Shown here: positions 7,562-64,000 of the stretch, one piece after another
How the letters are laid out: every line of letters begins with the position of its first letter
Position numbering within the stretch: the stretch's first letter is position 1
NCBI RefSeq assembly: GCF_004010195.1
Contig: NC_057721.1
Span: 39,696,194-39,760,193 of the forward strand
DNA: 64,000 nucleotides
Origin: Chiloscyllium plagiosum
Taxonomy: Eukaryota
Direction: 5' to 3'
Notes under the pieces: model-generated
What the model saw: only the letters and a program-made list of their open reading frames with translations
Databases searched by the model: none
Told to the model about the DNA's origin: nothing
Made by a program: the position numbers and the translations under genes

Positions 7562-7927
7562 NNNNNNNNNNNNNNNNNNNNNNNNNNNNNNNNNNNNNNN
7601 NNNNNNNNNNNNNNNNNNNNNNNNNNNNNNNNNNNNNNNNNNNNNNNNNNNNNNNNNNNNNNNNNNNNNNNNNNNNNNNNNNNNNNNNNNNNNNNNNNNN
7701 NNNNNNNNNNNNNNNNNNNNNNNNNNNNNNNNNNNNNNNNNNNNNNNNNNNNNNNNNNNNNNNNNNNNNNNNNNNNNNNNNNNNNNNNNNNNNNNNNNNN
7801 NNNNNNNNNNNNNNNNNNNNNNNNNNNNNNNNNNNNNNNNNNNNNNNNNNNNNNNNNNNNNNNNNNNNNNNNNNNNNNNNNNNNNNNNNNNNNNNNNNNN
7901 NNNNNNNNNNNNNNNNNNNNNNNNNNN
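7562..7927. other. Assembly gap (366 N) flanked by G homopolymers
   Basis: N run with poly-G on both sides, inside a purine-rich region. Confidence 0.99.
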
Positions 7928-16634: not shown

Positions 16635-17229
16635 GAAACATAGAACAATACAGTGCAGAACAGGCCCTTCGGCCCTCGATGTTGCGCCATCCTGTGAACT
16701 ATTCTCAGCTCGTTCCCCTACACTACCACAAAATCATCCATGTGCTTATCTAAGGATTGTTTAAATCTCCCTAATGTGGCTGAGTTGACTACATTAGCAG
16801 GTAGGGCATTCCACGCCCTTACCAGTCTCTGCGTAAAGAAACTAAATGAATGGACTAAATTTAGCAGAAATCTGAATGATTTTAAATGATTCCTAATAAA
16901 TAATGTTCTCTGGCTAGGCAGCTAACTAGATTTGTTCCTCTCTCATACTGGAATTAAAATCAATCTATATGCCTTCCATTAACCAGCTGTTTATCTGAGA
17001 TATCAATGAACCAGGTTTTCTCATCGATTTATAACATGCAGTTTTATGCTGACAGCAAAGAATGAGACTTTATAAATGACTGAACTAATATTTTCTTCCA
17101 CACTAAATAACTGTGCAACAGCAATTTCAGCTTTTTTTTTGTTCAGAACCTATTGTTTTAAATTATTTGCAATAGATTATATATCTAAATAAAATTAAAA
17201 TATAATATTTTGAAATGCAAAATTTAACG
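16635..17229 (-). repeat. Copy 1 of a 595-bp duplication (CR1 3' end plus unique AT-rich sequence)
   Basis: Nearly identical to 33982-34575. Confidence 0.95.
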
Positions 17230-30569: not shown

Positions 30570-32625
30570 TGCGAGACTGTGGTGCTGGAAGATAAATGGG
30601 ATGGGGGTGGGGAAAGGTAGCTAAGAATGTGATAGGTAGATTAAAGCGAGGGAGAAGGTGGTAGGTTGGAAAGGAGGTGGAGTGGATAGATGGGAAAGGT
30701 GATGAACAGGTCAGGAGGGTGGTGCAGAGTTGGAGGCTTGGGACTGGGATAGTGTGGGGGGAGGGGAAATGAGGAAACTAGTGAAATCCACATTGATCTC
30801 GTCTGGTTGCAGGGTCCCAAGGAGGAATACGAGGCGTTCCTCCTCCAGGCATCGGATGGTAAGGGTTTGGTGATGGAGGTGGCCCAGAACCTGCATATCC
30901 TTGGCGGAGTGGGAGGGGGAGTTGAAGTATTCAGCCATGGGGCAGTGGGGTTGGTTGGTGCAGGTGTCCCAGATATGTTTTCTGAAATGATCTGCAAGTA
31001 GGCTTCCTGTCTTCCCGATGTAGGAGACCACATCGGGTGCAACAGATACAGTAGATGATATTGGAGGAGGTACAGGTAAATTTCTGTCAGATGTGGAAGG
31101 ATCCTTTGTGGCCTTGGACAGAGGTAAGGTGAGGGGAGTGGTGTGGGTGCAGGTTTTGCACTTCCCGTGATGGCAGGGGTAGGTACCGGGAGTGGGATAG
31201 TGGGGTGTGTGTGCGCGTGTGTGTGTCTGACGAGGGAGTCGCGGAGGGAATGGTCTTTCCAGAACACTGATTGGGGTGGGGAGAGAAAAATACATCTGGT
31301 AGTGGGGTCTGTTGGTAGGTGTGGAAGTTGCAGAGGATGATGCAATGTATGTGGAGATTGGTGGGGTGGAAGGTGAGGACCAAGAGGTTCTGTCCTGGTT
31401 GCATTGGGAGGGGTGGGGTTCAACGGCGGTGGTGCAGGAAGTGGATGAGATGCGCTGGAGGGCATCATCGACCACGTGGGAGGGGAAATTGTGATCTTAG
31501 AGGAGGCAGCCAACTGGGACCTTCTAAGGTGGAATTGGTCATCCTGGGAACAGATGCAGCAGAGGCGGAGGAATTGGGAATAAGGGATAGCATTTTTACA
31601 GTAGGTAGGGTGGGAGTCAGTGGGCTTCTAATAGATGTCCATGGTTAGTTGGTCGCCGGAGATGGAGAGGTCCAGGAAGGGGAAGGTGTCTGAGATGGTC
31701 CAGGTGAATTTGAGGTCAGGGTGAAAGGTGTTAGTGAAATTGATGAACTGTTCAACCTCCTCAGGGGAGTATGGGTTAGCGCCGATACGGTCATCACTGT
31801 AGCAGAGGAACATGCAGGGGGTGGTGTCAGTGTAACTGTGGAAGATGGACTGTTCACATACCTGACAAAGAGGCAGGCATAGCTTGATCCCATGCGGGTG
31901 CCCATGGCTACCTCTCTGGTTTGGAGAAAGTGGGAGGATTGGAAGGAGAAGTTGTTAAGCGTGAAGACCAGTTCAGCTAGGTGAATGAGGATATCAGTGG
32001 AAGAGTACTGGTTGTGACGACGTAAGAGGAAGAAACGGAGGGTTTGGAGGTCTTCGTTGTGGTGGATGGATGTGTATAGGGTCTGGATGCCCATGGTGAT
32101 GAAGAAGCATTGGGGTCTGGGGAAACAAAAGTCTTAGAGGAGGTGAAGGGTGTGGGTGGTCTCCCGAATGTAGATGGGGAGTTCCTGGACTAAGAGTGAC
32201 AGGATGCTGTCAAGGTATGCAGAGATGAGTTCAGTGGAACAGACCCAGGCTGAGACAATGGGTCAACTGGGGAAGTCAGGTTTGTGAATCTTCAGTAAGA
32301 GGTAGAATTGGGTGGTGTGGGGTTCACAGACAATGAGGTTAGAGGCAGGGGGTGGGAGATGCCCAGATGAGGTTGTGGATGGCCTGGGAATTGAAGGTTT
32401 GGTGATGGGAGATGAGGTTGTGGTCGACAGGGCAGTAGGAGGTGGTGTCTGCGAGTTGGTACCTGGTTTCAGTGGTTTAGAGGTTAGTATGCCAAACCAC
32501 CAAGTTTCCCTTTGTCTGCGAGTTTGATGGCGAGGTTGGGGTTGGAGTGGAGAGCTACGCATTGTGAGGACAGGAGGTTGGGTGGTGAAAGGGGTGGACA
32601 GGTTGAGGCAGTCGATGTCACGGCA
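30570..32625 (-). mobile_element. Penelope-like element (RT plus GIY-YIG endonuclease), decayed
   Basis: ORFs 31645- (LYTSI...AELVFTLNNFSF...VAMGTRMGSSYACLF), 31628- (FHPDLKFTW...FLDLSI) and 30711- (CKTC...YIGKTGSLLADHFRKH). Confidence 0.9.
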
Positions 32626-32629
32626 CCGT

Positions 32630-32985
32630 GACCTGTCTAACCCTCTCACTCACTCCAACCACCTGCCCTCACAATACGCAAACCTCCACTCCTACCCCAA
32701 ACTCACCATCAAAATTGCCCCATTGACCATGACCTCACCTCCCATCACCAAACCATCATCTCCCAGACCATCCACAACCCCATCACTCTGGAGATCTCCC
32801 ACCCACTGCCTGCAACCTCATTGTCCATGAATGCCACACTGCCCAATTCTACCTCCGACTGAAGATTCACAAACCTGACTTCCCTGGTCGACCCAATGTA
32901 CAACCCACTGCTCTTGTCCCACTGAACTCCTCTCCGCATACCTTGACATGTTCTGTCCCCCTTAGTCCACAAACTCTCCACCTAT
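32630..32985 (+). mobile_element. Inverted Penelope fragment adjoining the previous element
   Basis: 32721-32985 is the diverged reverse complement of 32165-32430 (e.g. CTGAAGATTCACAAACCTGACTTCCC). Confidence 0.8.
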
Positions 32986-33981
32986 GATATGAACATCATT
33001 GCACTGAAATAATAAATAAACCAAAGGATGAAAGAATGTGAAGATAACTAAGGTAATGAAGGATGCACATTAAGACTTTCAGAAAGGAGGAAAGAAGAGG
33101 GGAACTGTGGAACATGAAGTAGAAAATTCTGATCTGAAGTTATTAATCTTAATATGCAGAATGAAATAGGACTCCTGGTGTTGTTATTTAAATAGTACAT
33201 GAGGCCAAAGACTGAATAATCAGACTCCTAATAAGAGATAGAAGTGGCAAGCCACAAAGAGGTCTGAACTCCACTTAAAGACTAAATAGAGATGTTCCAC
33301 AAAGCACTCACCCAAACTACGTTGGTCTTATGCAGTCCCCTCTATGATGAGGAGGCCAAACGCAGATTGGGTAACCACTTTAATCTGCTGATTTTTTTCT
33401 TGCTTCAGTTTAATCTAAAAACACAAATTGGCAGTTTTAATCTAAACTAATGACCAGAGAGATCAGGAGTATATGATACTATCCAAAACAATAAGAACAA
33501 ACCCTAATGGGAAAAGTTCCTGATTTATCCCAAGGATGATCACAGTAATAAATTTTTGCTCGTTCATGGAAATAGACTTATACACCGGATGTTATGAAAC
33601 ATATTCAGACTGTCTGAATCATAATACTCACTGCTTCCTTTCTCATTGCTAATTCACTAACTTCACCTGAACATTACCTTGAATTTCCACACCATTTTGT
33701 ACAAGGAATAGTCTTGAAACAGGATATCAAAAATGCACTTTTAACTGTATTCCCAAATATGTAATGCACTATACAATAAAATATCCTCTAAGGACTGTAT
33801 CTTTTGAGTTCCTGAGAGCAACCCAAAAAGTCCATTGGTAACAGAATGAAGCATAAACAAAAGCTCAAAACAAAAACAAATACTTGGCTGAAATGTTTGA
33901 ACACTTTACTCTGTTTCTAACAAAGTTCCATGACGAGGACCTGTTATTACAAAATAGGGATAGTGTTTGAGACTACTGATT

Positions 33982-34575
33982 GAAACATAGAACAATACAG
34001 TGCAGAACAGGCCCTTCGGCCCTCGATGTTGCGCAATCCTGTGAATTATTCTCAGCTCGTTCCCCTACACTACCACAAAATCATCCATGTGCTTATCTAA
34101 GGATTGTTTAAATCTCCCTAATGTGGCTGAGTTGACTACATTAGCAGGTAGGGCATTCCACGCCCTTACCAGTCTCTGCGTAAAGAAACTAAATGAATGG
34201 ACTAAATTTAGCAGAAATCTGAATGATTTTAAATGATTCCTAATAAATTATGTTCTCTGGCTAGGCAGCTAACTAGATTTGTTCCTCTCTCATACTGGAA
34301 TTAAAATCAATCTATATGCCTTCCATTAACCAGCTGTTTATCTGAGATATCAATGAACCAGGTTTTCTCATCGATTTATAACATGCAGTTTTATGCTGAC
34401 AGCAAAGAATGAGACTTTATAAATGACTGAACTAATATTTTCTTCCACACTAAATAACTGTGCAACAGCAATTTCAGCTTTTTTTTGTTCAGAACCTATT
34501 GTTTTAAATTATTTGCAATAGATTATATATCTAAATAAAATTAAAATATAATATTTTGAAATGCAAAATTTAACG
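33982..34575 (-). repeat. Copy 2 of the 595-bp duplication
   Basis: About 3 substitutions and a 1-nt T-run difference versus 16635-17229. Confidence 0.95.
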
Positions 34576-45430: not shown

Positions 45431-46677
45431 TTTTATGCCTAGCTCCTCATCCTACTCATGCAGAATCTCTTCCCTTGTCCTGCCTCTATCATTAGTACCT
45501 ACATGGGCCACATCTTTTGGATAGTTGCCCTCCTATTGAAAACTTCTCTCTAGCTCTGAGGAGATATGATGAACCCTGGTGGCAGGCAGGCAACACGGAC
45601 TTCTAAATGTTCAAAATGTAGCTCTGGTTCAAAACAACTGGATATTTTTAATATCTCTGCAGGTTAAGAGGCTTTGATTATATATAAATAAAAGCATAGA
45701 ATTAAAATTACAGAGATGAATGGTGACATACATTTTAAACATAAAACATTGATTTTTTTTCATTGTGACAAGTTTGTGAAATGAAAATTTCATAATATAA
45801 AAGTGTGTCACAGTAGAAAAAAGTTTGTGTCTGGAAGTGCATTCCATATGCAAGACATGCATTATGTTTATTTAACAAGCTACCGCAGGCTCGATGGGCC
45901 AAATGGCCTCCTTCAGCACCATAATACTTCCGTGATTCTATGATTTAATAGCATATTGATAATACATTGTAGCCACCACCTATATACTTAAAAATCATTC
46001 AAAAATGTTAAAGCAAGTTGATCTTATGCATTCCTGCTGTTAATTATGCTTCTATTACTGCATGCTAATACTACTGTAGTCATTTAAATATCTTTCATTT
46101 ATAATTTTATGCAGTTTACAAGTCAGCATGCACACTTTCCTATCTTGTTTGTCCTATTTCTCACTCTTGTTCTGTTTATGAAAAGTTACAATTCAAAAGT
46201 CAACTTGTCTCTTTCTTGCACAGATTCTGCACAGGAACAGGAATTGGCTATTCAACTCTGAGTCAATTTAATTAGGTCATGGGTGATCCATACTTCAATT
46301 CCATTTACCTGCTATTGTATGATATTAAAAAAAAACTAATTGTTAACATTTTTAGCACACCAGTACACTCAGCTTTTTGGAGAACAGAATTCCAGATTTT
46401 CATTACACCTAGTGATCTGTAATTTAATTTTTGAATGACCAGCTATTTGTTTCCTGCTTTTGAAAATGTGCAATGTAATACCCCATTTTGCAGCCTTACA
46501 AATAGCATCAAGAGGAATCACTTTGGATGCTGGTCTGAGAAATGGGCACTACGCGTTCAGAAAATGCTTTAACTTTTCCCTGCCCGACAACATCAAAGAA
46601 AAAGTTAAGTTTTACCCAATCTAGAATGGGAACTGTGCATACATTAAGAAAATGAATAATTAATTTTTTGATCTTAC

Positions 46678-46761
46678 CTTCAATTTCCTTCTTGCATTAA
46701 ATTTCCTTAGCTGTTCCACAGTTTCTGGGAGATGAATTTTGTATGCGTAACGATCTCGTTC
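46678..46761 (-). CDS. CASK: CASK coding exon (exon 9 equivalent), autoinhibitory/calmodulin-binding-like segment
   Basis: cag|GAACGA...TTGAAG|gtaaga. 84 nt, [28 protein letters not shown]. Confidence 0.96.
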
Positions 46762-46997
46762 CTGAAATGTATTATGAATGATTTCAAACCTGAAGTATAT
46801 CACAATAAATAAATAAATAGTTCACAGCTAATTCCAATATCTTTAAGATTCTCTGCTAGTTACTCCAAGACAATACACTTCTGTCAGTCTTAATCTTTCT
46901 TCAGTTTATCAATGAAAGAGTGAAATAACATTCAAAACTCTGAAAACTAAGAGAAAACACTACTGTAAAGAATTGTTTCATATACCATATTGAAATA

Positions 46998-47470
46998 TTG
47001 AAAAATGTAGACCACTCGGTCTTTCAAGCTTGCTCCACTAGTCAGTATGTTCATGTCTGATCATCCAACTCTCACCCTTTGATCCATTTAGCCCGAACAG
47101 CTATACCTAACTCCTTCTTGAAACAGATAAATAGTGTTATACAAGTTGGAACCAGACCTTTTGATCCAACTCATCTGTGCTAACTGGAAATCCTGAAATG
47201 TTTTGGCTTCAACCTCTTTTTGTGGCAGGGAATTTACACAGGCTCTCCATTTTGTGTGTAAAGAAATTTCTCATTTCAGTCCTAAATGGTCAACCATGTA
47301 AGCTTAGACTGTGAACCATGGGTACTCTCCAGTCACCAGAAACACTCTTCCTGTGTTTATCCTATCCATTCTGTTTGCATTTTTCATGTTTCTGTGAGAT
47401 TCCCCCTCATTTTTCTGAATGCCAGTGAATACAGTCTTAAATATTGGCTCTGCCATCCCAGGAATGAGAC
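46998..47470 (-). mobile_element. CR1 3' fragments
   Basis: CR1 3' UTR-like start and GAGATTCCCCCTCATTTTTCTGAA (reverse of RMRGNL). Confidence 0.6.
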
Positions 47471-48275
47471 TGGCCATATTAGATAGTTAATAACAAGTAT
47501 CAAACACTAAGTCCTGATTTTAAGTTGTTCAGTTTGAATTCATTCTGCTTTAATATTACAGATATAGTAAGGCCTACATGTGCATTTAACATTAGGATTT
47601 TTGTTTTTCCATAGCTTCATGGCAGACCATGCAGTGTGTCATTTTGGAGCAACCCCTACTGCTCCCAACCCCCATCCCAATCCTCCTATTTCCTGACATC
47701 CTAATTCGCTCCACAATCTTCCTGCTCACAACCCTACCACCACCTTGACCCCCTCACGCACAGGTCCTCACATCCTTTGCTCTTGCTGCCTCTATCCTGT
47801 GCCTTTGCCCACTGAGAGTGCTTGAGAAAAGTAAGTGGTGAATGAGAGGGAGCAGGAGAAGCGGAAGCATGTGGGATGGAGAGTGGGAGTGCTGAATAGG
47901 AGAGTTGACAAGGGAAGCTTTGAGGAGCAGGAGGATCTGAGAGTCAGAGACAAGTACAAAGTGTTAGCATATAGTTTTAAAATTATAAATGTAGCAATTT
48001 ACAAATACATGGTCTTCTAATTTACATTTTTTAAAGATCAATGTCTAACAACGTAACTACAGCTTATATTGATAGTAATGGGAAAATCTGATTTGCTTCA
48101 TCTAAAATTGCATTTTTAAGAAATGCAATTACAGTGCTAAGTGAGGAATTACTATATTCTATTATTAAAATTATGCTAAATAGATCAATTGCAAATAATC
48201 TACCCATGCTAAAAAAAAGTACTTAAAAACTACCTTCCAAACACATCAATATGAATTCTACCTCCTACTTCATTA

Positions 48276-48461
<186 letters not shown>

Positions 48462-48773
48462 CTACATGAAAACAATTGAAAAACAGTCAAATGCATTGTA
48501 ACTGTAAAATTGCAATTTCCCATCTATTGCTTCCATTCAATAGTTATATAAATATGATTCTCAATTATATTGGTAAGATGTTAGCTAATCGAAAAGTTAG
48601 AGAAAGTTACTTTTCAGAGCTGCAGAAGTAACAATACATAGTTAAGAGAGAATAAGAATTCCTGGGCACAAAAATAATGAGCGTAATAATACACATGTTT
48701 AAGAGGGTATATGAAATATGTCTTATTTAAGAGGTTCGTTCAGATGTATAGGGTATATGGCAAGAGACAATTA

Positions 48774-49010
<237 letters not shown>

Positions 49011-49109
49011 TCACAACACAAATCTACTGGAAGCAACAGGTTCAGTTTCAGTCTGTAATCACACATATTGGTCAAAAATGGAAAATGAAGGGATATTGCA
49101 TAGCTAATA

Positions 49110-49225
49110 CTGCATGGTTCATTTGTGTCCTTTCAGGAAGGAAATCCACTATGCTTATCTCTTCTGGCTTACATGTGACACCCAGACCCACAGCATGGTG
49201 GTTGCTTTGTTTCTCCCCTCTGGGC
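49110..49225 (+). mobile_element. Deu-SINE core fragment
   Basis: TGGTTCATTTGTGTCCTTTCAGGAAGGAAATC...CTGGCTTACATGTGACACCCAGACCCACAGCA resembles the Deu domain. Confidence 0.6.
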
Positions 49226-49340
49226 AAGTAAAAACTTAGCCTGTGCATGAATAAAAAAAAACAGGAGTGCATTAAAACATGAGAGCTTTATTCAAAATTC
49301 TACTCTGCTACTTTTATCGTGACATTACCGTTTTGACTTT

Positions 49341-50006
49341 TGTTACAAAGTTGAAGGACAATGTTTAAAAACTTGTCCTTAAACATTTAGACTAAAATGT
49401 AATTTTGAATTATAGTACACATTTGCTGCACACTAGAAAACAGACAGGCAGGGAGGGCAAGACAATTAAGAACATTTGCCTTAACATTAGTGAATCTGTA
49501 TAAACAGGGCACCAAATGATAACATTCGTGGCTGCGCCTTTGTGATATTAATAACCACGTTTGATTCTGAACTTGAAACAAAACTCTGTATCAATTAACT
49601 TCTGTCCCGACTTACTGTCCATCACTTTTATGTCTAGTTCAGAACATGCAGTGCTTTTGTTAACTTTTTGTGTTTGTGACAGTACAGCCTTTGTAAACTT
49701 GCATATTAAGATAGTCTTTTTTAACTAGTACGACAGAGTAGCCTGCCAGGGCTCTTGAAGAGCTGATGTTCTACTTTCCTGGGTTATTAGAACCCAGTTC
49801 ATTTAGCTTATAGGTATCAGTGTTATGTTGTAACAGTGATGCTATTAGTAAATGAAGGGGATGATTAAAGTTAAGCTAAACTGTCTGAAAGAGTTTTTTT
49901 TAAATCCCAGACTACCAAAGGTATCATCTCCGGGATGAACTAAGAGAGGCTTACAGGTTGAGTCCAGAAGGAATTCCTTGCACCGTCTCAAATCTGTACT
50001 TTATCA
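49341..50006 (+). repeat. 5' LTR of the ERV
   Basis: Ends ...ACTTTATCA immediately before the PBS. Candidate TATA (TGTATAAA near 49497) and ATTAAA near 49864 followed by a T-rich stretch. The start is uncertain (TGTTACAAAG at 49341, or the homology limit at 49365). Confidence 0.8.
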
Positions 50007-50009
50007 ATT

Positions 50010-50027
50010 TGGCGCTGTGAGCAGGGT
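50010..50027 (+). promoter_or_regulatory. Retroviral primer-binding site, tRNA-Ser(CGA)-like
   Basis: TGGCGCTGTGAGCAGGGT lies 3 nt after the LTR-terminal CA and is complementary to the 3' end ...CTGCTCACAGCGCCA of vertebrate tRNA-Ser(CGA). A strong donor AAG|GTAAGA follows at 50108. Confidence 0.8.
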
Positions 50028-50523
50028 TCCAACAAGGGATACGTTTGAGTGAAACTGGAAGAGGAGCTTCACTTAAGGGTCGGACTTGAGACCAATGGGT
50101 CCACAAGGTAAGATTATACCTCGATTGCTCTCGGTCCGCATCTTTGTATGATGCTTCCTCTATTTCACTCTCATGGTACTCTGATGGGACCCTAAATGAG
50201 ATCGTTTAAATAAGTACTAAAAACAGAAACTGTCAGGGTTTCAGAATATCGAGAATGTTCATTAGTCTTGTTGTTTTCGTTGTCGGGTTGTTATCCTCTA
50301 AAATACTCGTATGTGTGTGCGTGCGTGTGTCTGTGTGTGGGAGAGTGGGACACAGACAGACGAACACTCAGCACTGATTCCCTGCTGCTTGCAGGAAGTT
50401 TAACCCTTTGAGATTCGGTTTGGATGCACATTTGCTTGTTGGTGAGTGAACGTTTGTGTTTTGTGGGGTTGGAGCCCCTGTAGATCAGTAATTTTGTGAA
50501 GATTTAAAGAAAGTAGGATAAAT

Positions 50524-52580
50524 ATGGATGCGACCCTAGATGGAAGACAAATGCCCCCTAACAGAAATAATAAGTTTGTATCCTAATTATGAGGAACAAT
50601 TAAGGAGAATATCGACTGCAGCTGCTCAACAGAATAAGCATTCGCCTCTAAGAGGCACACATGATTTAAATCTACTCATTAAAATTGAACAAGGGATTTG
50701 GGAAAAAAATAAAGCGAAGTAAGCAGAAAGAAGCCATATCAGCGTGGAAAAAAAGTAGCTAGGGAAAAATGGGAAAAACCCACGCAATCGTCATGGAGAC
50801 AAAACTGTTTTAAAGGGGAATTAGTCCATTAGCTGAGGAAGGATCTGAACCAAATTGGACGGAACTAAAATGCAAATGTGAAACACATGATTTAGAAGCA
50901 GAATTGGAATTGGTTAAGGAGAAAATAAAGAAAAGGAAAGCAAAGATTCAGAACCTACGCTGAAAGGTCAGGGGCCGTAAAGAAAAGGGAAACCGGTGAA
51001 TAAACAACAGACTGCAGTTGCAGCAGCGGAAGATGTGACTGACAACAAAGACTGTTCCTTATACCCCACTCTCCCTTCTCCCAAAGACCCATTACTAAAG
51101 AATCCTGATCCATCCACGGATGAGAAATGGGACACTGATTCGGAGGAGGAAATATTTTACGCCTCCCATCCTGTCAGCCGTCCTCCTCCGGTTCCCGCCT
51201 CCAAATTCACCCACAGTATGGCCAAGGTGAACACGCTTCATAAAACAAAAAGTTGCCTGAACCTCTCTCCCTAATCTGAGGACGAACATGCCAAGGCCTA
51301 TGCCCTTCCCCCAAGTGAATAAGGATTCGGCTTACCACGAACCCATTGCCCACCTCAATAGGAGTCAATTAAACTTAAAACGTGGAAGGAACAGTGAAGA
51401 GACTCCTTTGATTTCCACTGCCCCTGTACTAATAAGTCCCAAAGACATTGATGGATTGCAATCAAAGTTTCAGGACCTTAATATCAGTCCTTGCATTCAC
51501 CCTGATGTAGGAGAGCCAAAGAGAAATTTCCCAAATAGAAGAGTCCCTGACCCACAGGCCCTGAAACCAGGACAAACCCAATTTGTGGATCTCTATCAAC
51601 TATGGAAACCTCATGAACACTCAAGCATTATCAATAAGACTCCAGATTATGGCAAGAATCCTGAGGGATTTATTAATTACATTAATAGGACTAGGACCAT
51701 TTATAATGCTGCCTCCCAAGACCTATTTCAACTCATAGAATGCACCCTTTCCCCTGAAAAATGAGCTGAGTTCTTAGAAAGTTTACAATGTAATAATCAT
51801 GCCCAGCTTGTAGTCCAGCATGACACCGAACCTAACAGATCAGATTGGATTATTACCTATCTCTGCCAAGCAGTGCGTCGTGCAGTTGATGTGGGTAAAG
51901 TCTTAACATGTAAATCCAGCTCGGGCAGAGGGGCTGAGGAGTTCCTTGTCTGTTTTAAGGAATGCTATGGCGTTTACTCTGGTGATGCGAACTACCCACA
52001 AGCGCGATCACCCCAAATTAATGCCCTATGTATGACTGTCTTACCTGATCAGGTACAGAAAGCTATTAAAACCCACAACATCCACTGGCAAGATGCCGAG
52101 GTTGCACAATTCAGCCGAGAGGTTTGTTACTTCTGGGAACTAAAGGAAACCAACAGTAAGGCTACCATTGGCAAGGTCAAGACAGAAACTTGTCTAAACT
52201 ACAGGGGCTAAACCTAAACCCAGGATTCAAAATAGACCTTTCTGTCACAAGGCTATCAAATGGACCCTCATACTGTCATCCAGTATACCAGGACAGTAGC
52301 ACTGGTACCGTGTATTCACAACATCCCAATGGACCTTGGGGTGCTCCGATGTATTGTCCCCAATAGTCTATGATGCCCCTTACTCCCTATACATTCTCTC
52401 ACTACTCTTCACTGCCTCCCCACCCCCTAAGAGTCCCCCAACAATTACATGTTTGTTTCAATTGTAATCAACCAGGACATTAGTCCAAGAACTGCCCTTT
52501 CCCAAAGCAGCCCCCGATTGATCATGGGAGTGGAAGCAGCTGGCAACCCCTTGGTTATCCTACCCAGGGACCTCAGCTGG
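50524..52580 (+). pseudogene. gag: ERV gag (disrupted)
   Basis: Fragments in ORFs 50540, 50996 (LYPTLP late-domain-like motif), 51288 (p30-like PDYGKNPEGF...DLFQLI) and 51873 (MHR-like EEFLVCFKECYGVYSG). Zinc knuckle CFNCNQPGH*SKNC at 52454-52495. Confidence 0.85.
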
Positions 52581-54850
52581 TTGCCCCTTTTACATCACAA
52601 AACTTTTTTCTATGTTGACACCTGTGCGACAGCTGTTCTCGCCCAGCAATATGACTCCTCTTGGTGCTCTGTTGCCTATTATTCCACTAAATTTGACCCT
52701 GTTGCTCAGGTTATGCCTTCTTGCACCCAGATTCTCCCTGCCATCCATACTATGATAATGGCTGCCTCAAATATAATTTTATATCAAAATGTAGAAGTCT
52801 GTACGTCCCATTCTGTGGCATCCTTGCTTACCTCTAAACATATCAAACTTCACTGTGGCTCGTCTAAGTCACTATGAGATTTCATTACTTCAGAATCGGC
52901 TTCTCTCCTTTAAATACTGCTCTAACATTAACCCCGCTACATTCCTGCGGGAAGAACCTCTTGAATTACCTGACCCTCCCCATGATTGTGTTCTCATAAA
53001 CGACCTTGTTACTAAACCACATCCTGATCTTACAGATCAGGTTCTTGTTAACCCGAACCTTACACTTTATGTTGATGGTTCTTCTTCTATCTCTCCAGAG
53101 GGCAAACACATGGCAGGATATGCAACTGACGCTTTTTCCCATACAATAGAAGCTTGTTCTGTCGAACCATCCTGTTCCGCCCAACAAGCTGAACTCCTTG
53201 CTCTCACCTGTGCCTGCGTACTTGCTGAGGAAAATCAGCTAATATCTATAATGATTCCCGCTACGCTTTTGGATGTGCCCATGATTTTTGTCAACTCTAG
53301 CAGCAGCGTGGCTTCCTTACCTCACCAGTGTGGTGTAAAATTCCAAGCAGTGGAATGTGGTGAAACGGTTAAAAATTATGTCCCAATACATGTGTGAATC
53401 TAACCGGAATGGAGGTGTTGCTTAGTCCCGTGTGAATCTGTATGTAACCAGAATGGAATGTGTCCCCTATCCTCAATGCTGCCTATGTTGCTAATCTCTT
53501 CAGTGCTATTCAACTTCCCTCTCAATTGGCAATTATCTAATGTTCTGCTCACTCCTCTGATGCTCACGATGTCACAAAAGGCAATAATACCGCTGATGCG
53601 GCTGCTAAGAAAGCAATTTTTGAGCAAAACGACATGGTTACTCAAATGATGAATAGGAAACCAAAGGGAGACTCTCCCATTTCCTCTTCTGACACCCCGA
53701 CCATGCCTGACCTAGAGCAAATATGCCCATCAGGGGGACGCCTCTAATGAGGAAAGACAAAGATAGATGAACCATGGTTGTTGTGTAAATAGTTACAATA
53801 AGCTTTGGGTTACGCTGATTGGATAGGCATGTCTACCTACTCTAGTTGATTATGTTCATACGCATACGCACATAGGTAAGGAGGGAATGGTGGACAGAAT
53901 TCTCCAAACTTGGTGGAATCCCCACTTGCAAGAAAAAGCAAAACAAGCAGCTGCAAATTGCCTAATTTGTCAAAAGCATAATCCCAGGAAAGGAGTAAAG
54001 TGTCCACCAGGTGAAACTCCTTTGCCAAGTGCACCTTTTGATAATACCCAGTTAGATTTTATAGTTACCTAGATGCCATTGTTATAAGTATTGCTTAGTG
54101 ATAATCGATGCATTTAGTAAACAGATTGAAGCTTATCCCTGTACTGACTACATAGCAACAACTACTTGTAAAATTCTATTAAGGAAATCAAAAGCAGATA
54201 TGGAATACCAGTAACGGTCTCTTCCACCAATGGCCACCACTTCTGTGTGGAGCTAAACAAGGCACTTTGTAAGAGTTTGAATACGAATCAAAAATTCTAT
54301 TGTGCCAACCATCCCCAAGCAGTGGGAATTGTAGAAAAAGCCAATGGTACCTTAAAAGGTCAGCTAAGCAGGTTGATAGAAGAAACAGGCCTTAATTGGC
54401 TGCAAGTACTCCCAATTGCCCTTCTTAATATGAGAACCATGACACAGAAAAAGACGGGATTCTTGGCGGCTGAACCGATATATGGACAGCCCCTGAGGAC
54501 TCCCTGGTCTGCACCATTAACTGCCCAACACCCTGTTGATGTGCATGTCATGGCAGAAGAGATGCACAGGTACCTGATTAAGCTAACCAAAGCATAATAG
54601 TCTTATCATCAACAGGTCAAAGAAGCCGTTCAAATACCAGGGAAGGAAGAAGAAAGCGCTCCAACGTTTAAAGACATTAACCCTGGTGACTACGTACTAT
54701 TGAAAGACATTAATTGTGAAAAATTGGGCCCCGGCTGGAAAGGCCCTTATCAAGTTCTTTTGACAACTGAAACTGCAGTAAAGATAGAAGGACACTCAAC
54801 ATGGTCTACAAAGGACATTGCAAGCTTGTAACCCCCTCACAGTCTTAAGT
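52581..54850 (+). pseudogene. pol: ERV pol remnant: RT connection, RNase H, integrase (protease and RT core missing)
   Basis: ATAVLAQ...VAYYSTKFDPVA (connection); LYVDGSS...SAQQAELLAL (RNase H); HTHTH...CLIC, QLDFI, HPQAVGIVEKANGTLK and GPGWKGPYQVLLTT (integrase). Confidence 0.9.
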
Positions 54851-54859
54851 GTTAGTACT

Positions 54860-56270
54860 GATACAGGCATCCAATGAAAACCTAACCCAAGCACATGCGC
54901 CCAGATGTAACCAACCCATCTGTGATATCTCAGACTGGCTAAAACTCCAACGTGACTGTATAAATAAAACCCGTACTGATACCATTCGAAGTCATGAATG
55001 CAACTGTCCAGATGAAACTCATTTAAACTACTCACATTGTGTATCCAAACATAACTCTCGACCTTATTGTCATCCTCGCAACACTTATATGCCAGTCATC
55101 ATAACCTCATCCACTCCGTCAACCGAAAACCGTTACTTTGAAATGTTTGTCTGTTCCCCTCTCAAAATGAACCGCACAGATTGCGATATTGAGCACACAG
55201 TACCGAAATCACCAAACCCTAAGGCACCTATTGCCATGAGACTGACTACCTATACCTTCTCGACGGAATCCTCTCCTATCCAACCTACCGCCACTGACAG
55301 AAATATCTTTACATGTTTCCTGTATTCAGTAGCTACTGTAATTAACAAGACAAGCTGAAAAGGTGAAGAAAGACCAAAAATACTATGCACTCCCAATCCT
55401 CCATCTGTTACTAATGCTTTCTTTATTCAAGCTAATCCCCCTGATCCATGTATTATCTGCTCACTCTTCTATCATTCTGATGTACAGTGTATAAATAGGA
55501 CTCACCCACTTATGCAATCCCTCATTTGTGATGAAAAAACCTATTCGGTAGAAGAAGCACGCTACAGTGTGAAGTGCACTAACAAACCTAAAGGATTCAA
55601 TGTTGATGCTGTTCAGTTGATAGAATGGTGCATTGAAAGACTTTCCGGTACCCACAATATGGGACAAGTGAAATAAAACTACGTAAAAATATGATCAAAA
55701 TATCAAAAATATTATCTCCATCCATTAATACACTTGGACAACTGAACGTTTGATAGCACCCACTGTTTACAAGATTCTCCTCTCGCTCCTAGTGGACTAG
55801 TCATTCATTCACAGAAGTGCACCCTTGGAACTCCTTTTAGCCCTCACTGGCAATGCAAAAACAAAGCCTACCCATATTTACTCAATGCCTGTTACGGACA
55901 TTGTGCCCCAGTATACACCTTACCACTTTTTACCCTCCACCATGAAGTAACTGAAATAGATGGTGAATGGAACGCCCACCAACATATGAATCAATACAGA
56001 ACAAAAAGTACAGGAAAACAAAACGACTTACACAACTTCTTCCATCAACACAGCTGGTGGTCCAGGTTGCTCCGAGATCTTATTCCTGGCTGGGGTGTTG
56101 AGATGGCCCTAGATCAGATAAGTGACCTTGCGTATGACATCAAAAAACTTTCCAACTCAACTGCCCACGCTTTGAAGCTGGCAAACAAAGAGTTACAGGA
56201 GACCCAGATGGTGACGCTTCAGAATCAGCTAGTGCTAGATCCCCTCCTTGCTAAAGAAGGAGGCGCTTAA
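54860..56270 (+). pseudogene. env: ERV env remnant (Cys-rich SU and N-terminal TM), truncated at the immunosuppressive domain
   Basis: Cys-rich ORF 54849. ORF 55986 has a fusion-peptide-like LIPGWGV, a heptad region and LQNQLVLDPLLAKEGG (CKS-17-like). It stops before the CX6CC motif and membrane anchor. Confidence 0.85.
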
Positions 56271-56271
56271 T

Positions 56272-56906
56272 TGATAAAGTGCAGATTTGAGACAGGGAAT
56301 TCCCTATGAACTCAACCTGTAAGTCTCTTTTAGTTCATCCTGGAAATTGTACCTTTGGTAGTTTGGAATAAAAAATACTTACACACAGATTAGCTTAATT
56401 TTAATCATCCCTTTCATTTACGAATAGCATCACTGTTATAACATAACACTGATACCTATAAGCTAAATGAATTGGGTTCTAATAACCCAGGAGAGAAGAA
56501 CATCAACTCTTCAAGAGCCCTGGCAGGCTACTCCATTGTACCATCTCAAACAGACTATCATTATACACAAGTTTACAAAGGCTGTACTGTCACAAGCACA
56601 AAATGTTAACAAAAGCACTGCATGTTCTGAACTAAACAGGTAATAGGGAAGGACAGTAATTCAGGACAGAAGTTAATTGAAACAGAGTTTTGTTTCAAGT
56701 TCAGACTCAAATATTGTTATTCATTTCACAAAGGAACAGCCATGAATGTTATCACTTGGTGCCCTGTTTATACAGATTCACTGATGTTAAGGCAAATGTT
56801 CTTAATTGTCTTACCCTCCCTGCCTGTCTGTTTTCTAGTCTGCAGCAAATGTGTACTATAATTCAAAATTACATTGTAGTCTAAATGTTTATGGACAAGT
56901 TTTTAA
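56272..56906 (-). repeat. Second LTR copy in inverted orientation
   Basis: Reverse complement of 49365-50006 (ORFs 49387- and 56690+ give near-identical translations). About 17 mismatches in 240 nt aligned by eye. Confidence 0.92.
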
Positions 56907-57532
56907 GGCTATAAACGTTCTCAAAATGGATATCAGAGTTGGTTGCCGCATTGACCATTTGAATTTAACTAATCAGTTTAAATTATCGCCCAGGATACTA
57001 AATCCCAAACGAGTTCGAATTTATTGTTTTGCCAACATTGAACCAGACAGTCTGATGTTGGGGGTATGAAAATGCAGGCACTTTGAAAATTGTAGGCACA
57101 ATTGCCGTTGAAAGAGATCCAAGAAATCAGGAACACTCTCTATCAAAGGTGCCTCTTCATATAAAACATACACACAGTAAAAAGAAAGATGATGACCCAG
57201 GGAGATCTTCAGCCGGGAGAAGAAAGACATTGAAGATGACAGCCGCGTGTGGTTTTGAAATTAAGTTGATGTAATTTTAATACGCGTCTTATTGGAACAG
57301 TATATTGTTATAGAGTTGGAAGCAGGTAATAAGCAGTTAAGAGAAAGGGGGGCTCAGAATTGTGAATAGTTGTTTAATATTCACTTTTAGAGTTAAAGAA
57401 TAAATTGATGTTATTTTCTTTAAATAGTGGAATTTGGGAGTTCACTAATATATAAAACAGATTACAAGGCAAGGTGAGCTTTTCCGGGTGTTCGGCTTAG
57501 TTAACAGAAGGGTTCACTGACGTGTCGTAACA
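56907..57532 (+). mobile_element. Partial LTR-like sequence of an apparently different family
   Basis: AATAAA near 57399 and a terminus ...CGTGTCGTAACA typical of an LTR end. No similarity seen to the ERV LTR. Confidence 0.5.
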
Positions 57533-58174
57533 GGACTAAAGCATCTGTTAAAATAACAGGGGGGAGAAATTCTTTGGGAAAAATGTTGATGAATTAGAAT
57601 CCCACACTATAAATTCAACAGCTGGCTTTTTAACTTATATGAATTTACCCGATTTGTGATTATCTTAAGAGGATGTCAAATTTTTCTCTATCGATTGAAG
57701 AAAAATCTGGGACATGGTTTATTTGTATTAGAAGACAACTTTATAGTTTTATCAATTAAAATCTTGCAGTGAGAGCAATGAGAGAGCTAACAAGGGAGGT
57801 GGGAGCTGGGCAAGAGCCTACACTGGTGGGAGGAGTGGAGTGGGAACCCATAGGGGTGGTGGGAACAGAAAAAGAGTTGCAAGAGACAGTGGGATTGGGA
57901 AAGGAACTGAGGGGAGGAAGGATTGGTGGAATCCAAGAGAAGCAATGGATGTGACCTGGAAGCCACGAGAGATGGACAAAGAGTCTGGTCACTGGTCCAG
58001 TCACAGAAAAACAGGTAGACAATTTGTTGATAGACATTTTTTCTCATTATTGATAAAATACCTGAGTTTTGAAATATAATGATATGATTTAATAGAGAAA
58101 GTGTGAAAGACACCGCGTACAAGAAAAAGTGCGAGAGGGTGAAGGCGAACGAGATTACACGCAAGAAAGCGTGT

Positions 58175-58472
58175 GGGCGGCACGGTGGCACAGTGGTTAG
58201 CACTGCTGCCTCACAGCGGCAGAGACTCGGGTTCAATTCCCGCCTCAGGCAACCCCCGTGTCTGCGTGGGTTTTCTCCGGGTGCTCCGGTTTCCTCCCAC
58301 AGTCCAAAGATGTGCAGGTCAGGTGAATTGGCCATGCTAAATTGCCCGTAGAGTTAGGTAAGGGGTAAATGTAGGGGTATGGGTGGGTTGTGCTTCGACG
58401 GGGCGGTGTGGACTTGTTAGGCTGAAGGACCTGTTTCCACACTGTAAGTAATCTAATCTAATCTAAAAAAAA
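58175..58472 (+). mobile_element. HE1-type V-SINE (tRNA-derived)
   Basis: Head GGGCGGCACGGTGGCACAGTGGTTAGCACTGCTGCCTCACAGC with B box GGTTCAATTCC; V-domain GTGCTCCGGTTTCCTCCCACAGTCCAAAGATGTGCAGGT; (AATCT)n tail. CpGs retained, so probably young. Confidence 0.9.
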
Positions 58473-59698
58473 GCAAAGAAATGCGCAGGAAAGTGAGCAT
58501 GCGGGGGAGCTGGCGACAGGGAGCCAGCGACAGGGAATGGGCAAGAGGAAGCGCGAGATGGGGAGTGCGCGCGAGGGGGCGGGTGACCTGGAATGCGTGA
58601 GAGAGAGGGCGAGGGAGGAGGCTGGCGCCGGGGAACGGTCGACGTGGTGCGAAGCGTCAGGTGAGCCAGAGCGCGCTAGGGAGGGGACTGGCAACGGGGA
58701 GTGGGCGAACCGGAGCAGGCGAGGGAGTGGGCGGGGAGGCGGGCGAGGGGAAGGGCTGGCGGGCAACATGGAGCGGGTAACGGGGGTCTGGCGATGGAGG
58801 GGGAGACAATGGTGCATGTTTGCGACGGAGAGTTGGCGACAGGCAGCAGCCGGGCAATGGGGAGCGCGAGGAAGCCGGCAGGCGACGGGGAGTTGGCGAC
58901 AGGGAGCGGTCAAGACAGAGTCACCGAGGGAGTGCGAGCGCGCATGAAAGACAGACACCCAGTGTGTGTGAGTGCACGTGAGAGACAGACACCCAGGGTG
59001 TGAGCGCGTGTGCGAGAGACGTGCCGTGGGAGAGCACGCGTGCGTGAGAGACGCTCTGAAGGAGAGTGCTGCGAGATGCGCACCGAGGGAGAGCACACAC
59101 GAGCGAGACACATACAGAGGGAAAGCGCATGCAAGAGGAACACAGCGAGTAAGAGAGAGCACGAGAGAGGCACACTGGGGGAGAGAAAGCACAAGAGGGT
59201 TACGCCAAGCAAGGGAGAGACAGCACGTGCGAGAGAGACACTGAGGGAGACAGAGCATTTTGTGAATAGTCTAATTATGGAAATTTGTTGTTCCTTCCAT
59301 CTACTTTTGAAAAGACATCTCAAATGTACTCGAACCTTCCTGAGGTTGCAAGCTCTCCAATCAACAAAAGGTGACTTTGGGTCAGATTTCTCCTAATTGT
59401 GATTTTCTTACACATGGAGATTTCAATCTTAAAAACACTCTTTCTTGGTCTCTTTCTCTACTTGTGTGTTTTTCTCTCTCTGGCTCTGTGTATGTCTCTC
59501 TCTCTCTGTTGTTTTCTCTCTGTCTCGCGCTCGCTTGCTTGCTCTGCGTCCTGCACATGCTCATGCTGCGTGTCTCTCTCACACATTCTGTCTCTTGCGT
59601 GCTGCGTGTGTCTCGCACGCTTGCTTCCTTTCTTCCCGTCTCGCATGCTGGTTCTCACTCTCACCGTGTCTCTCTCGCTTGCTTTTTTCCCCCCTTCT

Positions 59699-59970
59699 GT
59701 GTCTCACTTGCTCTCTCCAGCACCCATTCTCGCCTTCTTTAGTGTGCATTTGTCCCCTCTCAATTTCATGCATACTCCAATTCTCTCTCTCCTTTTGTGA
59801 CTCAGTGTGTCTCCCTGTGTCTGCTTCTCCCTGGGTGTCTCACTTGCTCTCTCCAGCACCCATTCTCGCCTTCTTTACGGCGCATTTGTCCCCTCTCAAT
59901 TTCATGCATACTCCAATTCTCTCTCTCCCTTTGTGACTCAGTGTGTCTCCCGGTGTCTGCTTCTCCCTGG
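59699..59970 (+). repeat. Tandem duplication, 2 x 136 bp
   Basis: GTGTCTCACTTGCTCTCTCCAGCACCCATTCTCG...CTTCTCCCTGG at 59699-59834 and 59835-59970, with few mismatches. Confidence 0.9.
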
Positions 59971-60719
59971 CTTCCTCTGTCGCTTTCTCTGTCTCCCTTG
60001 CTCTGGCGCACATTTTTGCCTTCTCTTGCTGTGTCTGACTCATGCTGTGTGCACATCTCTCTCTTGCGCGCACTTGTGTCTTTCAAGGGAGAGAGGAGAC
60101 ACACTGAGGGAGACAGCTAGTGCGCATGTGACACATCGAAGGAGAGAGACAGCGTGTGAGAGACACACACATAGCGTGCGCAAGAGAATGTGGGTGAGAG
60201 ACACACTGAGGGAGAGGGAGTGGGTGCAGTGTGTATGTGTTTGTGTGTGAGACAGAGAGCCACACAGAGGGGAGGGGGAGGAAAACGCACGGGCCCAGAG
60301 ACAGAGAAAGAGAGTGTTTTTAAAATTGAAATCTCCATGTGTAAGAAAATTACAGCTAGCAGAAATGACCCAAAGTGGGAATCCTGGAAACACAGTTTGT
60401 TGAACGGGGAGCATGCAGCCTCAAGAAGGTTCGAGTACATTTGAGGAGATATCCTGGCAAAAGTAGATGGAAGGAACAACAATTTTCCTACAATTGGACC
60501 ATTCACAAAATACCCAAACGAAGAGACTACTCTTTCAAGTTTTGCTAAGTATCTAACTTGGGGGTACAAAACTAATGGTGTCGAAGAAAACTGGATTTAA
60601 GACATTCAGTTTAAAGTAGAAGAAAGAATATTCACTGTACTTTTAATATCTTTAACATAACTATCTATTTAAGGTAGAGTGTGGGTTTTATATTTCATTT
60701 TCTTTGATTTTTATGTATA

Positions 60720-61205
60720 ATAGAATCATGCAGTGCAAAAAGAGACCTTTCAGCCAGTCTGTACCACCAAAGCTACACCAAATCCCAATTTTCAGCACTT
60801 GGCCCACAGCCTTGAACGTTATGACACTGCAAGGACTTATCCATGCACTTTTTTCAAGGTTATTAGGTTATGCATCTCTACTATCCTCCCAGGTAGTGCA
60901 TTCCTGAACCCCACCACTCTGTGGATGAGAATGTTTCCGTCAATTCCCCTCTGCATCCTGCCTCACCTTAAAAGTGTGTTTCTTCATTACTCACCCCTCA
61001 ATTAATGGGATCAGCTGCTCTCCAGCGTTGGCAAGGTTAAATTTCACCTTCCACTGATCCGCCCATCTGATCAATCTGTTTATATTCTTCTGTAACCTGA
61101 GACCTTTTTCCTGTCAACCACTTGACCAATTTGTGTCATCTGCAAACTTATCTATCACCAATCCCCACATATTCATTTACATTGTTTATATATATCACGA
61201 ACAAT
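60720..61205 (-). mobile_element. CR1 fragments
   Basis: TAGAATCAT tail, CCCACCACTCTGTGGATGA and GTGTCATCTGCAAA (FADDT on the minus strand). Confidence 0.65.
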
Positions 61206-61740
61206 AGTAACATTATATTATTTTAAACCTGAAGCATTTGGAATAATTATTTTAACTAAATACCCGAGTTTCTGATTACATTTCTGGTTGATATCGAGAT
61301 CATTACATAGGAAGAAGTAGTCTTGTTACAAATGTGTAGGCCTTTAGTAAAACTAAATCTGGAGTACTGTGCATAGTGTCTATCAAAGGATATACTTGGC
61401 TTGAAGGGGAAACCAATTTCACTGGATTGGTTCCTGAGAGGAAAAGTTTGTCCTAAGATGAGAGGTTACATCTGCCCCATGGCCTTGACTTATTATACAC
61501 TAAGGAAGTTACTGTTGTAATATACATCAGTGCTGTGACACAGTGATATTCCAAATTCCAATTTAATTTCAAACTCACTGAGATATGAAAGTCTTAATGA
61601 AAAGTGATCAACCTACAAGATTAATTTTGCTTCTTTCTCCACAGAGGCTTCCAGTCCCAAATACTTTTTGTTTTAATTTCCAAACTTTCAACAGCTGCAG
61701 TACTTTTTTCTTCTAAAGACACAGAAGTAATGGATCTTAC

Positions 61741-61843
61741 CTCCAGCAACAAGCCCAGATTCTCCTAATTGAATGGCCACTCCAAATCCACCGAGTTTCA
61801 CAGGCGCTGAATTTTCCTTCGAAGCAAGTAACACACAATGTGG
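61741..61843 (-). CDS. CASK: CASK coding exon (human exon 6 equivalent), CaMK-like domain
   Basis: Minus strand cag|CCACATTGT...GCTGGAG|gtaag. 103 nt, translates [34 protein letters not shown](G), with the CASK-specific GFG in place of DFG. Not shown in this frame in the ORF track. Confidence 0.97.
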
Positions 61844-64000
61844 CTGCATGGGAAGGAAGACATTGAGTAACTTGTGTAAGAATAAAACTGCTATGGATAA
61901 AACTAAAACTGTCCATCTTTTGTAATTTATTAGAAGAAAAAGGTGAAACTACTGGAGTCAAAACTTTGACATACTTTATTGTACTGCTAATCTAAAGACA
62001 CATTGCAATTTGCAATTCATAGTCATTATTACAATCAAATTAAGCACAAGCGGAGCAGCTGTAATCTTAAATTTTGAAAAATGATATCAGTGTTTTTAGT
62101 GGTGTTACTCAGTCCAAATGCTGTATGCGTTAATGCTTAAAAATGGAGAAGTTGAGTTAGTCTGGGAACACACTTGTTCAGTGGTAATTCCATAGAATTC
62201 AGTATCAAAAATTTTCATTCTTTCAGTTAACTAACTCTCTGTATTCAGTACTGTCACTGAAAAGATGCTTCTATGCAAAATACCAGCACTTTTGACCATA
62301 TAATGTATGGCCATAGGAATACAAAGGAGTGTATGCTTATTATGTATATTTATGTATCACGTAAGTAAATATATAGTTCAAAAGAATACACAACGTCCGT
62401 CCTGAAACGGCACTGTCCATAAGTATATCCAAGATTTAATGAAAATGTTTAAAATATAAGCATCCAAGAACCTAATGAGCACTTAGACATGGAAACATCC
62501 AGTCCAGAACCACTTTGCCAATTACCTTTTTCACCCATTATCATTTAAAGAACTGAATGCTAAGCTCTGGAAACCAAGTCAACAGTGAAACATCATTCTG
62601 GGCTGTTTTCTTAAATGTAGAAAGTGTATATTAAAAAATTATGAGTGGGCATTTTCTTTTTAATATAAATCAAGGCTTGAGTCTAAAACCACCATTGGCT
62701 CCTGTTGTGGAATATCTTTTTACTTTAAACTAATTGTGTCAAGAATAAACTCCAATAACACATGTAACAAAACTTAGTTCTTTTGGCTCCTAAACAAAAA
62801 AGGGAAGTAGCACCCCAGACAATACATAACAAATAAGAAGCATTTTGCAATATTATATTGGTCTAGTTCCAACTATGTACTATACCCTGCAGTTGGCTGA
62901 TTAGCTCAATTTGTATTTTTAAGAAAACGTCTGCACCTGTTCTTTACATTTAAAATAACAGTTCAGAAACATGACACTGCACTGACATTGCATCACAAGA
63001 GTTTTTATTACAAAATCCAAATGGATCAATACAAATGAGATGCAATGTAAATAAAAGGTTAAATTTACCAATATAGTTCAAAACCTTACACATTGTAACC
63101 ATGTGGATGATGAATGATCTACAACAGGGTTGTCCAACATTTTGCATTTTGGAGGGGGGGGGGGCGTTGGCACAATCCATTTAATCCCTCACTTGCTGGC
63201 CCCGCCACCAAATAACATTCCAAAACTAAAATTATAATTTAAATGACTATTCAAAATTGCGAAGCAGCATAACCAACTAACAGCACTACTTGTTTTTCCC
63301 TTTCCCATAAGAAAAATGTCAATGCCTAAGCCTTCACCATCAGTAAAAGGGGTGGGAAATGAGGCAGAGATAAGAAGGTATGTGTAATGAATGCTGACCT
63401 TGGGTTTACTTGTGATTTGTCAGGCTGATGTTGTGCAGGATTAGGTGGCAGTGGATTGGTGTGTCCAGCTCAATTCAACTCATCCATTCACCAAAGCACA
63501 CACATCCCCTTTTCCCTGATCCTGCACTCACTTCTACTAGCTACTACATCCCTGTAACTAACATCTACCCACCAAATTTCCTTGATCCAGACACATTACT
63601 CACCCATCCTTCTAACCACTAACTTAGTCTCCATATATTCTCACACTACGTCACACACCCACTGCTCCAGTCACCCACCAAACCACAGCTCTCTCTAGTC
63701 ACCAACCTCGCTATCACTCTCCTAGAGTCACTCACTCCCCAACAAATGCCATCCCAACACCACCCACCTACCATACACGCACCTTTCCACTCACACACCC
63801 ACCGACCTAATTCCAGTAACTGCTTTGGCAAAAGAAAGTTTCCGGATTAATGTTGCAGCTAAGAATGCACGTCCCTTGGATCTCTGCAGCCAAATTGGGC
63901 ACCCTGATCAAATGACAAATCAGAGGTGCAGCAAGGCTAGCCAAGCAATGCAGCAAAGTGACGATCAATTCCAAAAAAAACCTAGGCAAAAAAATGGCCA

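Follow-up and report, generated by a model that had tools for sequence, protein, structure and literature searches.

How does an endogenous retrovirus (ERV) come to lie between two long terminal repeats (LTRs) that face each other as inverted copies, with their homology ending at TTAA on both sides? The question is raised by a 64,000-nucleotide (nt) stretch of the Chiloscyllium plagiosum genome (contig NC_057721.1 of assembly GCF_004010195.1, forward-strand positions 39,696,194 to 39,760,193), which we call the window and whose own numbering we use throughout. A first-pass annotation had offered two answers, namely a one-off rearrangement or a retrovirus-derived unit with terminal inverted repeats (TIRs) that moved as a block into a TTAA site. 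We found a defective ERV that has undergone rearrangement; the structure is real and uncommon, and most probably unique and inert. The best explanation of its structure is a one-off, self-templated inverted duplication of the 5' LTR through a template switch, which we put forward tentatively.

Self-blastn of positions 46000-62000 recovered an inverted match between 49365-50015 and 56906-56263 (578/653), and in a global alignment the left arm (49365-50009) and the complement of 56269-56906 were identical at 575 of 636 aligned bases. These results bear out the inverted pair described in the first-pass annotation, and its estimate of about 17 mismatches in the first 240 nt came to 16 when counted on the global alignment. 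Across the 636 columns there are 61 substitutions (34 transitions and 27 transversions; Kimura two-parameter distance 0.103) and four indels of 2, 2, 2 and 5 nt. As had also been noted, the arms enclose a primer-binding site (PBS) at 50010-50027 and remnants of gag, pol and env in that order. The terminal CA of the left LTR, at 50005-50006, is followed by a 3-nt spacer and then by the TGG-starting PBS, which we take to resemble the 3' end of a serine tRNA; a literature search with the PBS string gave no match. The layout of a canonical provirus, with direct LTRs and a polypurine tract (PPT) ahead of the 3' LTR, is not what we found. The env tail, the PPT and the direct 3' LTR are all absent from the element: in agreement with the earlier description, self-blastn returned no direct 3' LTR copy in 46000-62000, and the minus strand of 56230-57800 contains no purine run of at least 12 nt.

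The inner junction between env and the inverted LTR carries an informative signal. Env sequence reaches 56268, the next three bases (56269-56271) correspond, on the opposite strand, to the spacer between LTR and PBS, and the LTR runs from 56272 onward. The five closest of 62 env relatives were compared here (P0001, P0002, P0003, P0005 and P0028; 57 were left out), and three of the five align across the junction. All three of these spanning relatives (P0002, P0003 and P0005) run on in env, with a Cys codon in place of the TAA seen in the window, and tblastn with their C-terminal parts found no match near the element. The AATTG microhomology between env and LTR that had been proposed at this point therefore falls away, since 56269-56273 consist of the spacer and the LTR end, all on the LTR side, and the relatives encode Cys at the TAA codon. 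Instead, the env sequence just before the junction carries a 4-nt match, GCGC, to the PBS complement, whose register agrees exactly with that of the inverted LTR; runs of this length that end no more than 3 nt from a cut are found at 0.39% of 6168 internal positions. The match points to a switch of template, from env to an LTR that bears a PBS, and speaks against junctions made by integrase. Since the inner end holds the CA and the whole 3-nt spacer, with the PBS match in register, the template would have carried the PBS, and we infer that it was an LTR with its PBS side attached, either the 5' LTR or a reverse-transcription intermediate. A simple inversion of the 3' LTR was rejected, because the inner end has the spacer and no PPT lies ahead of the arm.

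On the reading we favour, a single class I (gamma/epsilon-like) provirus would have inserted antisense in a kinase intron and decayed later. Once, a polymerase on env would have slipped to the PBS beside the element's own 5' LTR via a short imperfect match, copied the spacer, U5, R and U3 backwards, left the template at TTAA and been joined to downstream DNA. The env tail, PPT and 3' LTR would thereby have been swapped for an inverted 5' LTR, without any need for a second insertion. Of this, the inverted copy, the register of its inner end with the PBS, the missing env tail and the decay can be read from the sequence, whereas the switch itself and the element's own LTR as template are proposed, as are all the mechanisms weighed here. 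The likelier setting for such a switch would be the chromosome, during replication or end-joining repair. Alternatively, it may have happened during reverse transcription, through a switch onto plus-strand strong-stop DNA that would give linear DNA with two U3 ends; this two-U3 DNA would enter the genome in one step, duplicating TTAA, and we assign this variant roughly a quarter of the favoured reading's weight. The one-off rearrangement preferred in the first-pass annotation is supported, but neither its autointegration form, given the spacer at the junction, nor its reliance on AATTG, which lies wholly on the LTR side, could be upheld.

The decay of the unit fits this history. Eight stops in 1115 codons correspond to 0.057 substitutions per site (95% confidence interval 0.024-0.112), a rough figure taken from hand-chosen segments, and half of the arm divergence amounts to 0.052 per copy. 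Such close values would be expected if the arms started out identical and stayed where they formed. The element is tens of millions of years (My) old or older, its age coming to 234 My with the rate assumed in PMC4422223 and to about 50 My with an assumed rate of 1e-9.

Several observations weigh against the favoured reading. The two bases between the GCGC match and the junction mismatch the PBS, so either a mismatched end must have been extended at the switch or two substitutions must have followed later, and an unconstrained duplex-energy test was weaker, with 3.9% of positions pairing equally well. The arms also differ unevenly. Seven CpGs are found only in the left arm and one only in the right, with none in common (p 0.07), the transitions between them divide 23:11 with the same lean (p 0.058), and divergence is patchy, with 6/160 differences in the outer part versus 55/476 in the inner (change-point permutation p 0.06). 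Both the asymmetry and the patchiness hint at two different parent copies, and these weak signals keep a two-provirus model alive. For the one-step variant there is the further difficulty that AAACT precedes the first TG inside TTAA, unlike the TG..CA ends that integrase leaves. The one-step route would account at once for the TTAA and for a split host LTR, yet it leaves the five bases ahead of the first TG unexplained.

What, then, of the outer ends? TTAA is present at both limits of the homology (49365-49368 and 56903-56906), as first reported, but the two occurrences amount to one coincidence: TTAA is its own reverse complement, and an inverted homology that starts at TTAA must therefore end at TTAA too. 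With 12 TTAA starts in the 645-nt arm, the probability of that coincidence is about 0.019, and 41 arm positions start a 4-bp palindrome of any kind. Inside TTAA the termini read AAACTT, and the LTR could begin with a TG at 49341, 49362 or 49374. The flank motifs were likewise found as described, with TGTTAC at 49341 and GTAACA ending at 57532; TGTTAC occurs 12 times in the window. Comparison of 49341-49364 with 56907-57700 on either strand gave no significant similarity, 38 and 90 of 200 shuffles scoring as well. No target-site duplication (TSD) was found around 49341/57532, where CTTT faces GGAC, and a displaced TSD (a shared GACT) was discarded because 64% of random 20-nt pairs share a 4-mer. 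Among 1836 pairs of TG..CA ends, nine have an exact TSD of 4-6 bp, about seven being expected by chance, and none bounds the arms. One of the nine, worth noting as a lead only, pairs the TG at 49341 with a CA at 57737, which are flanked by the same 5 nt (49336-49340 and 57738-57742), a chance-level agreement that would give an alternative right end for a split LTR.

The right flank differs from the arm that it adjoins. There are 15 CpGs in 56907-57532 versus one in the right arm (Fisher p 2e-4), and the observed/expected CpG ratio of 0.73 is in the top 1.6% of 624 windows. On account of this distinct CpG content, together with its TATA-like and AATAAA motifs and its GTAACA end, the stretch is plausibly a piece of a separate plus-strand LTR rather than more U3. 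It gave no protein matches; the frame across the outer TTAA (56839-57066) had no relative among proteins of 41-133 amino acids, and 56905-57066 returned low-score Atlas matches only. Against one long minus-strand LTR running from 57532 to 56272, with its left copy deleted, stand the sharply different CpG content and the 18 nt that follow TGTTAC on the left, for which the right flank has no match. The right flank also holds PPT-like plus-strand purine runs at 57339-57352 and 57558-57569, neither directly before a recognisable LTR start.

The close rival, which we regard as somewhat doubtful, is that two proviruses of the same family stood tail to tail and that their long inverted repeat collapsed when a microhomology-guided deletion fused the first provirus, in env, to the second, at its PBS. 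This would explain the spacer and the PBS register equally well, the family has other shark copies (parts of its integrase and env sit in a gene model of Hemiscyllium ocellatum), and the CpG asymmetry and patchy divergence of the arms (p 0.06-0.07) lean the same way; long inverted repeats promote asymmetric deletions, which we also count for it. It nevertheless requires a second insertion within a few kilobases (kb), plus a second lesion or a neighbouring element that trimmed the outer end of the second LTR. The homology limit shows no minus-strand TG start; placing the LTR start at 56897 would supply one, but at the price of 9 nt of unexplained shared flank. The arm divergence requires no difference from before insertion. 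An inner junction made by integrase is improbable. It could have arisen by autointegration with inversion, or from a sister provirus that inserted backward in env and became a solo LTR, after which the downstream env and 3' LTR were lost. The junction does lie at an LTR end, the joining point of integrase, and autointegration is described as joining internal DNA to the processed 3' end and giving inverted circles (PMC5314604). Yet a processed end joins at CA without the spacer, and the presence here of all three spacer nucleotides, which do not fit the relatives' codon, argues against such an end; moreover, neither arm has an env remainder, PPT or duplicated target beyond it.

We consider it very improbable that the locus is a composite non-autonomous DNA transposon, in which a trans-acting transposase carried a retroviral core with LTR-derived TIRs around it into TTAA in one piece. 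In its favour, the homology has its limit precisely at TTAA (p about 0.02), conservation within the arms is highest in the outer 160 nt, and the flanks could be one split LTR (p about 0.007 for TGTTAC within 40 nt, a hexamer picked after the fact). Teratorn, a piggyBac-herpesvirus fusion, is proof that virus-transposon fusions exist (PMC5601938), and Kolobok termini inside TTAA are given as 5'-RR..YY-3' (PMC9587614), a rule that the AA..TT termini satisfy nominally, with two bases in an A-run and as one test only, since the arms are inverted copies. However, the ends read AAACTT instead of the CCYT with which piggyBac TIRs begin (PMC5601938), Xenopus Kolobok ends start with AG (PMC6004289), and no transposase domain, the DDD type of piggyBac included, and no tyrosine recombinase domain was detected in 167 Pfam scans of unit and window frames (two stretches were scanned twice), from which short or badly decayed remnants could escape. 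The arms are plain LTR rather than transposon TIRs and are as decayed as the interior, the symmetry of TTAA is automatic, the split LTR has no TSD at 49341/57532 and the junction is not common to the relatives, so that the second answer of the first-pass annotation retains little support. Hardly better placed is a broader version, in which a core with LTRs as TIRs was mobilised at TTAA, by a Kolobok-like trans transposase or as two-U3 DNA, splitting an older LTR and recurring at further shark loci. Two features of DIRS elements were looked for and not found either: a DDE integrase is present instead of a DIRS1-like tyrosine recombinase, and a search for an internal complementary region (ICR) gave best internal matches of only 10-11 nt (E 0.09-0.34). 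Least probable of all is an assembly artefact, a fold-back read or a chimeric join. The locus comes from a single assembly, and near-identical copies do occur in the window, as a 99.2% duplicate at another place attests, but the arms are 10% apart with indels, where a fold-back would be near-identical; the only N run is at 7562-7927, and the host exons are collinear. Whichever timing applied to the template switch that we favour, the unit is dead and not a mobile element.

The interior is a long-dead class I (gamma/epsilon-like) ERV in the order PBS-gag-pol-env, with a capsid-like stretch, a zinc knuckle, reverse transcriptase (RT) connection, RNase H, three integrase parts and env following one another in shifting frames. 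Gamma-type markers are present in the p30-like capsid and in the integrase C-terminus of the murine leukaemia virus (MLV) type (MLVIN_C, Pfam E 8e-11); Gag_p30 clusters match the capsid-like stretch with scores of 0.92-0.93, and its best match is Gag_p24_C at 0.94 (Atlas). The gamma/epsilon-like placement is drawn from such domain markers. When the integrase core was used to look for long pol relatives, 321 candidates came up, none at E<=1e-5. The parts of pol that are kept are the RT connection, RNase H, and the H2C2, core and MLV-type C-terminal parts of integrase. The best PDB matches for pol are to Gag-Pol or RT p80 chains at residues ~354-454 and begin ~150 nt past the zinc knuckle, and Pfam gave no protease or RVT_1 match in the plus-strand frames scanned after it. 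The protease and RT polymerase domain are thus deleted, with a loss of ~1.4 kb of pro-pol, a size inferred from the MLV layout; the first-pass annotation did not mention this deletion. In its present form the unit cannot have been autonomous. Should the deletion at ~52480-52620 be shared with other copies of the family, it would mean a non-autonomous subfamily.

The env frame carries four stops, its close relatives are 60-81% identical, and the longest open stretch of the interior is 200 codons. The same ERV family occurs elsewhere in sharks, in the H. ocellatum gene model P0001 with its integrase and env pieces. The final ~95 residues of P0001, which is annotated as receptor-like, derive from the integrase and env of this family, and the tail is probably a gene-model artefact over a related provirus. 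Rfam yielded nothing beyond one match at E 0.94.

In a six-frame motif search, minus-strand kinase exons were located at ~61.8 and ~48.9 kb, collinear on both sides of the element. The whole unit therefore sits antisense inside one intron of a kinase gene, which we take to be CASK-like. The sole N run of the window lies 41 kb from the element. Coordinates are collected in Table 1.

Table 1. Features of the inverted-LTR provirus, its flanks and the host exons, in window coordinates
Positions	Strand	Feature	Evidence
48771..49010	-	Host protein-kinase exon, downstream of the element-bearing intron	Pfam Pkinase E 1e-14 and motifs
49341..49364	+	24 nt starting TGTTAC; true LTR start or start of a different LTR	Sequence
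49365..50006	+	5' LTR, part common to the inverted copy; begins TTAA, ends CA	Self-blastn, sequence, global alignment
50007..50009	+	LTR-PBS spacer, 3 nt	Sequence
50010..50027	+	PBS-like site, TGG-starting	Position and sequence
50525..52480	+	Broken gag; capsid-like 51765-52208, zinc knuckle ~52451-52480	Atlas clusters 0.92-0.94; zf-CCHC E 0.002; stops at 51762, 52364
52431..54831	+	Broken pol without protease and RT polymerase domain; frames shift	Pfam RT_RNaseH, RNase_H, Integrase_H2C2, MLVIN_C, rve; PDB matches
54849..56268	+	Broken env, cut in the transmembrane (TM) ectodomain after LAKEGGA	62 matches at E<=0.001; GP2 ectodomain matches weak
56263..56266	+	4-nt match GCGC to PBS complement, exact register with inverted LTR; two mismatched bases before junction	Register test
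56269..56906	-	Inverted LTR copy; 3-nt spacer at inner end, TTAA at outer end	Self-blastn, global alignment, junction comparison
56907..57532	+	Separate LTR-like stretch; TATA-like 57160, AATAAA 57399, ends GTAACA	CpG, motifs
61741..61843	-	Upstream host kinase exon, approximate ends	Six-frame motif search

Other repeats were seen in the window. At 22899-23889 lies a zero-spacer palindrome of ~990 nt whose arms are 82% alike. It is flanked by a direct repeat of 12 nt (22889-22900 and 23930-23941) and resembles a fold-back retro-insertion with a TSD, presumably Penelope-like. The near-identical duplicate mentioned above is a 598-nt direct copy (16632-17229 and 33979-34575, 99.2% identity, 17.3 kb apart), either a very recent duplication or an assembly duplicate. 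Two further inverted pairs, at 32171-32984 and 59257-60511, have arms of ~270 nt that are 77-80% alike, and neither ends in TTAA; the former adjoins long minus-strand frames (30641-32133) without Pfam matches, and the latter encloses a 136-nt tandem duplication.

As a one-off, the locus is of little consequence: a template switch to a primer-binding site, preserved as a fossil. It does advise caution, in that dating by LTR pairs and structure-based ERV finders, which expect direct repeats, will miss or misread such loci. If the reverse-transcription variant is true, the unit would be a germ-line example of fixed retroviral DNA with two U3 ends, and if the junction recurs at several TTAA sites, it would represent an undescribed retrovirus/DNA-transposon composite.

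Finally, we compared the element with known systems. It shares its LTR-PBS-gag-pol-env order, p30-like capsid, MLV-type integrase C-terminus and gamma-type TM heptad region with class I ERVs of cartilaginous fish, such as CmiERV lineages II and III as described in PMC4422223, and it belongs to the same family as the ERV pieces in P0001. Unlike the CmiERV-type elements, it has an inverted LTR, no direct 3' LTR or PPT, and a deleted protease and RT polymerase domain. The literature we covered, which excludes most subscription journals, contained no LTR-bounded TTAA composite and one ERV with inverted LTRs. Teratorn (PMC5601938) and Kolobok/T2-MITE elements (PMC9587614, PMC6004289) are superficially alike, with viral cargo between inverted ends at TTAA, but the shark element shows neither the CCYT TIRs nor the transposase nor the several insertions reported for Teratorn. 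DIRS1-like elements likewise carry inverted terminal repeats (ITRs) around gag and pol-derived sequence; according to PMC3266345, they have a tyrosine recombinase as well as ICRs, and their ITRs measure 66-316 bp. The shark element instead combines 640-bp arms with a DDE integrase, env and a PBS.

Closer parallels come from defective retroviral DNA. Among human T-cell leukaemia virus type 1c (HTLV-1c) proviruses, 1.9% are reported to have inversions, and 31% of deletion junctions to show 4-10 bp of microhomology (PMC13427564); like autointegrants (PMC5314604), they combine deletion or inversion with short junction homology, and such junctions are ascribed in these reports to RT template switching or end joining. 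These cases are somatic and internal, whereas the shark element is germ-line and ancient, involves a whole LTR and has a junction that is not a processed integrase end. The ERV with inverted LTRs is guppy PrERV-1, a foamy-like ERV that is likewise a single fish locus, presented in PMC5210030 as a one-off rearrangement whose cause is left unexplained. PrERV-1 belongs to another virus class and has low LTR divergence, and the shark element differs from it in that its inverted copy bears the PBS spacer and replaces the env tail.

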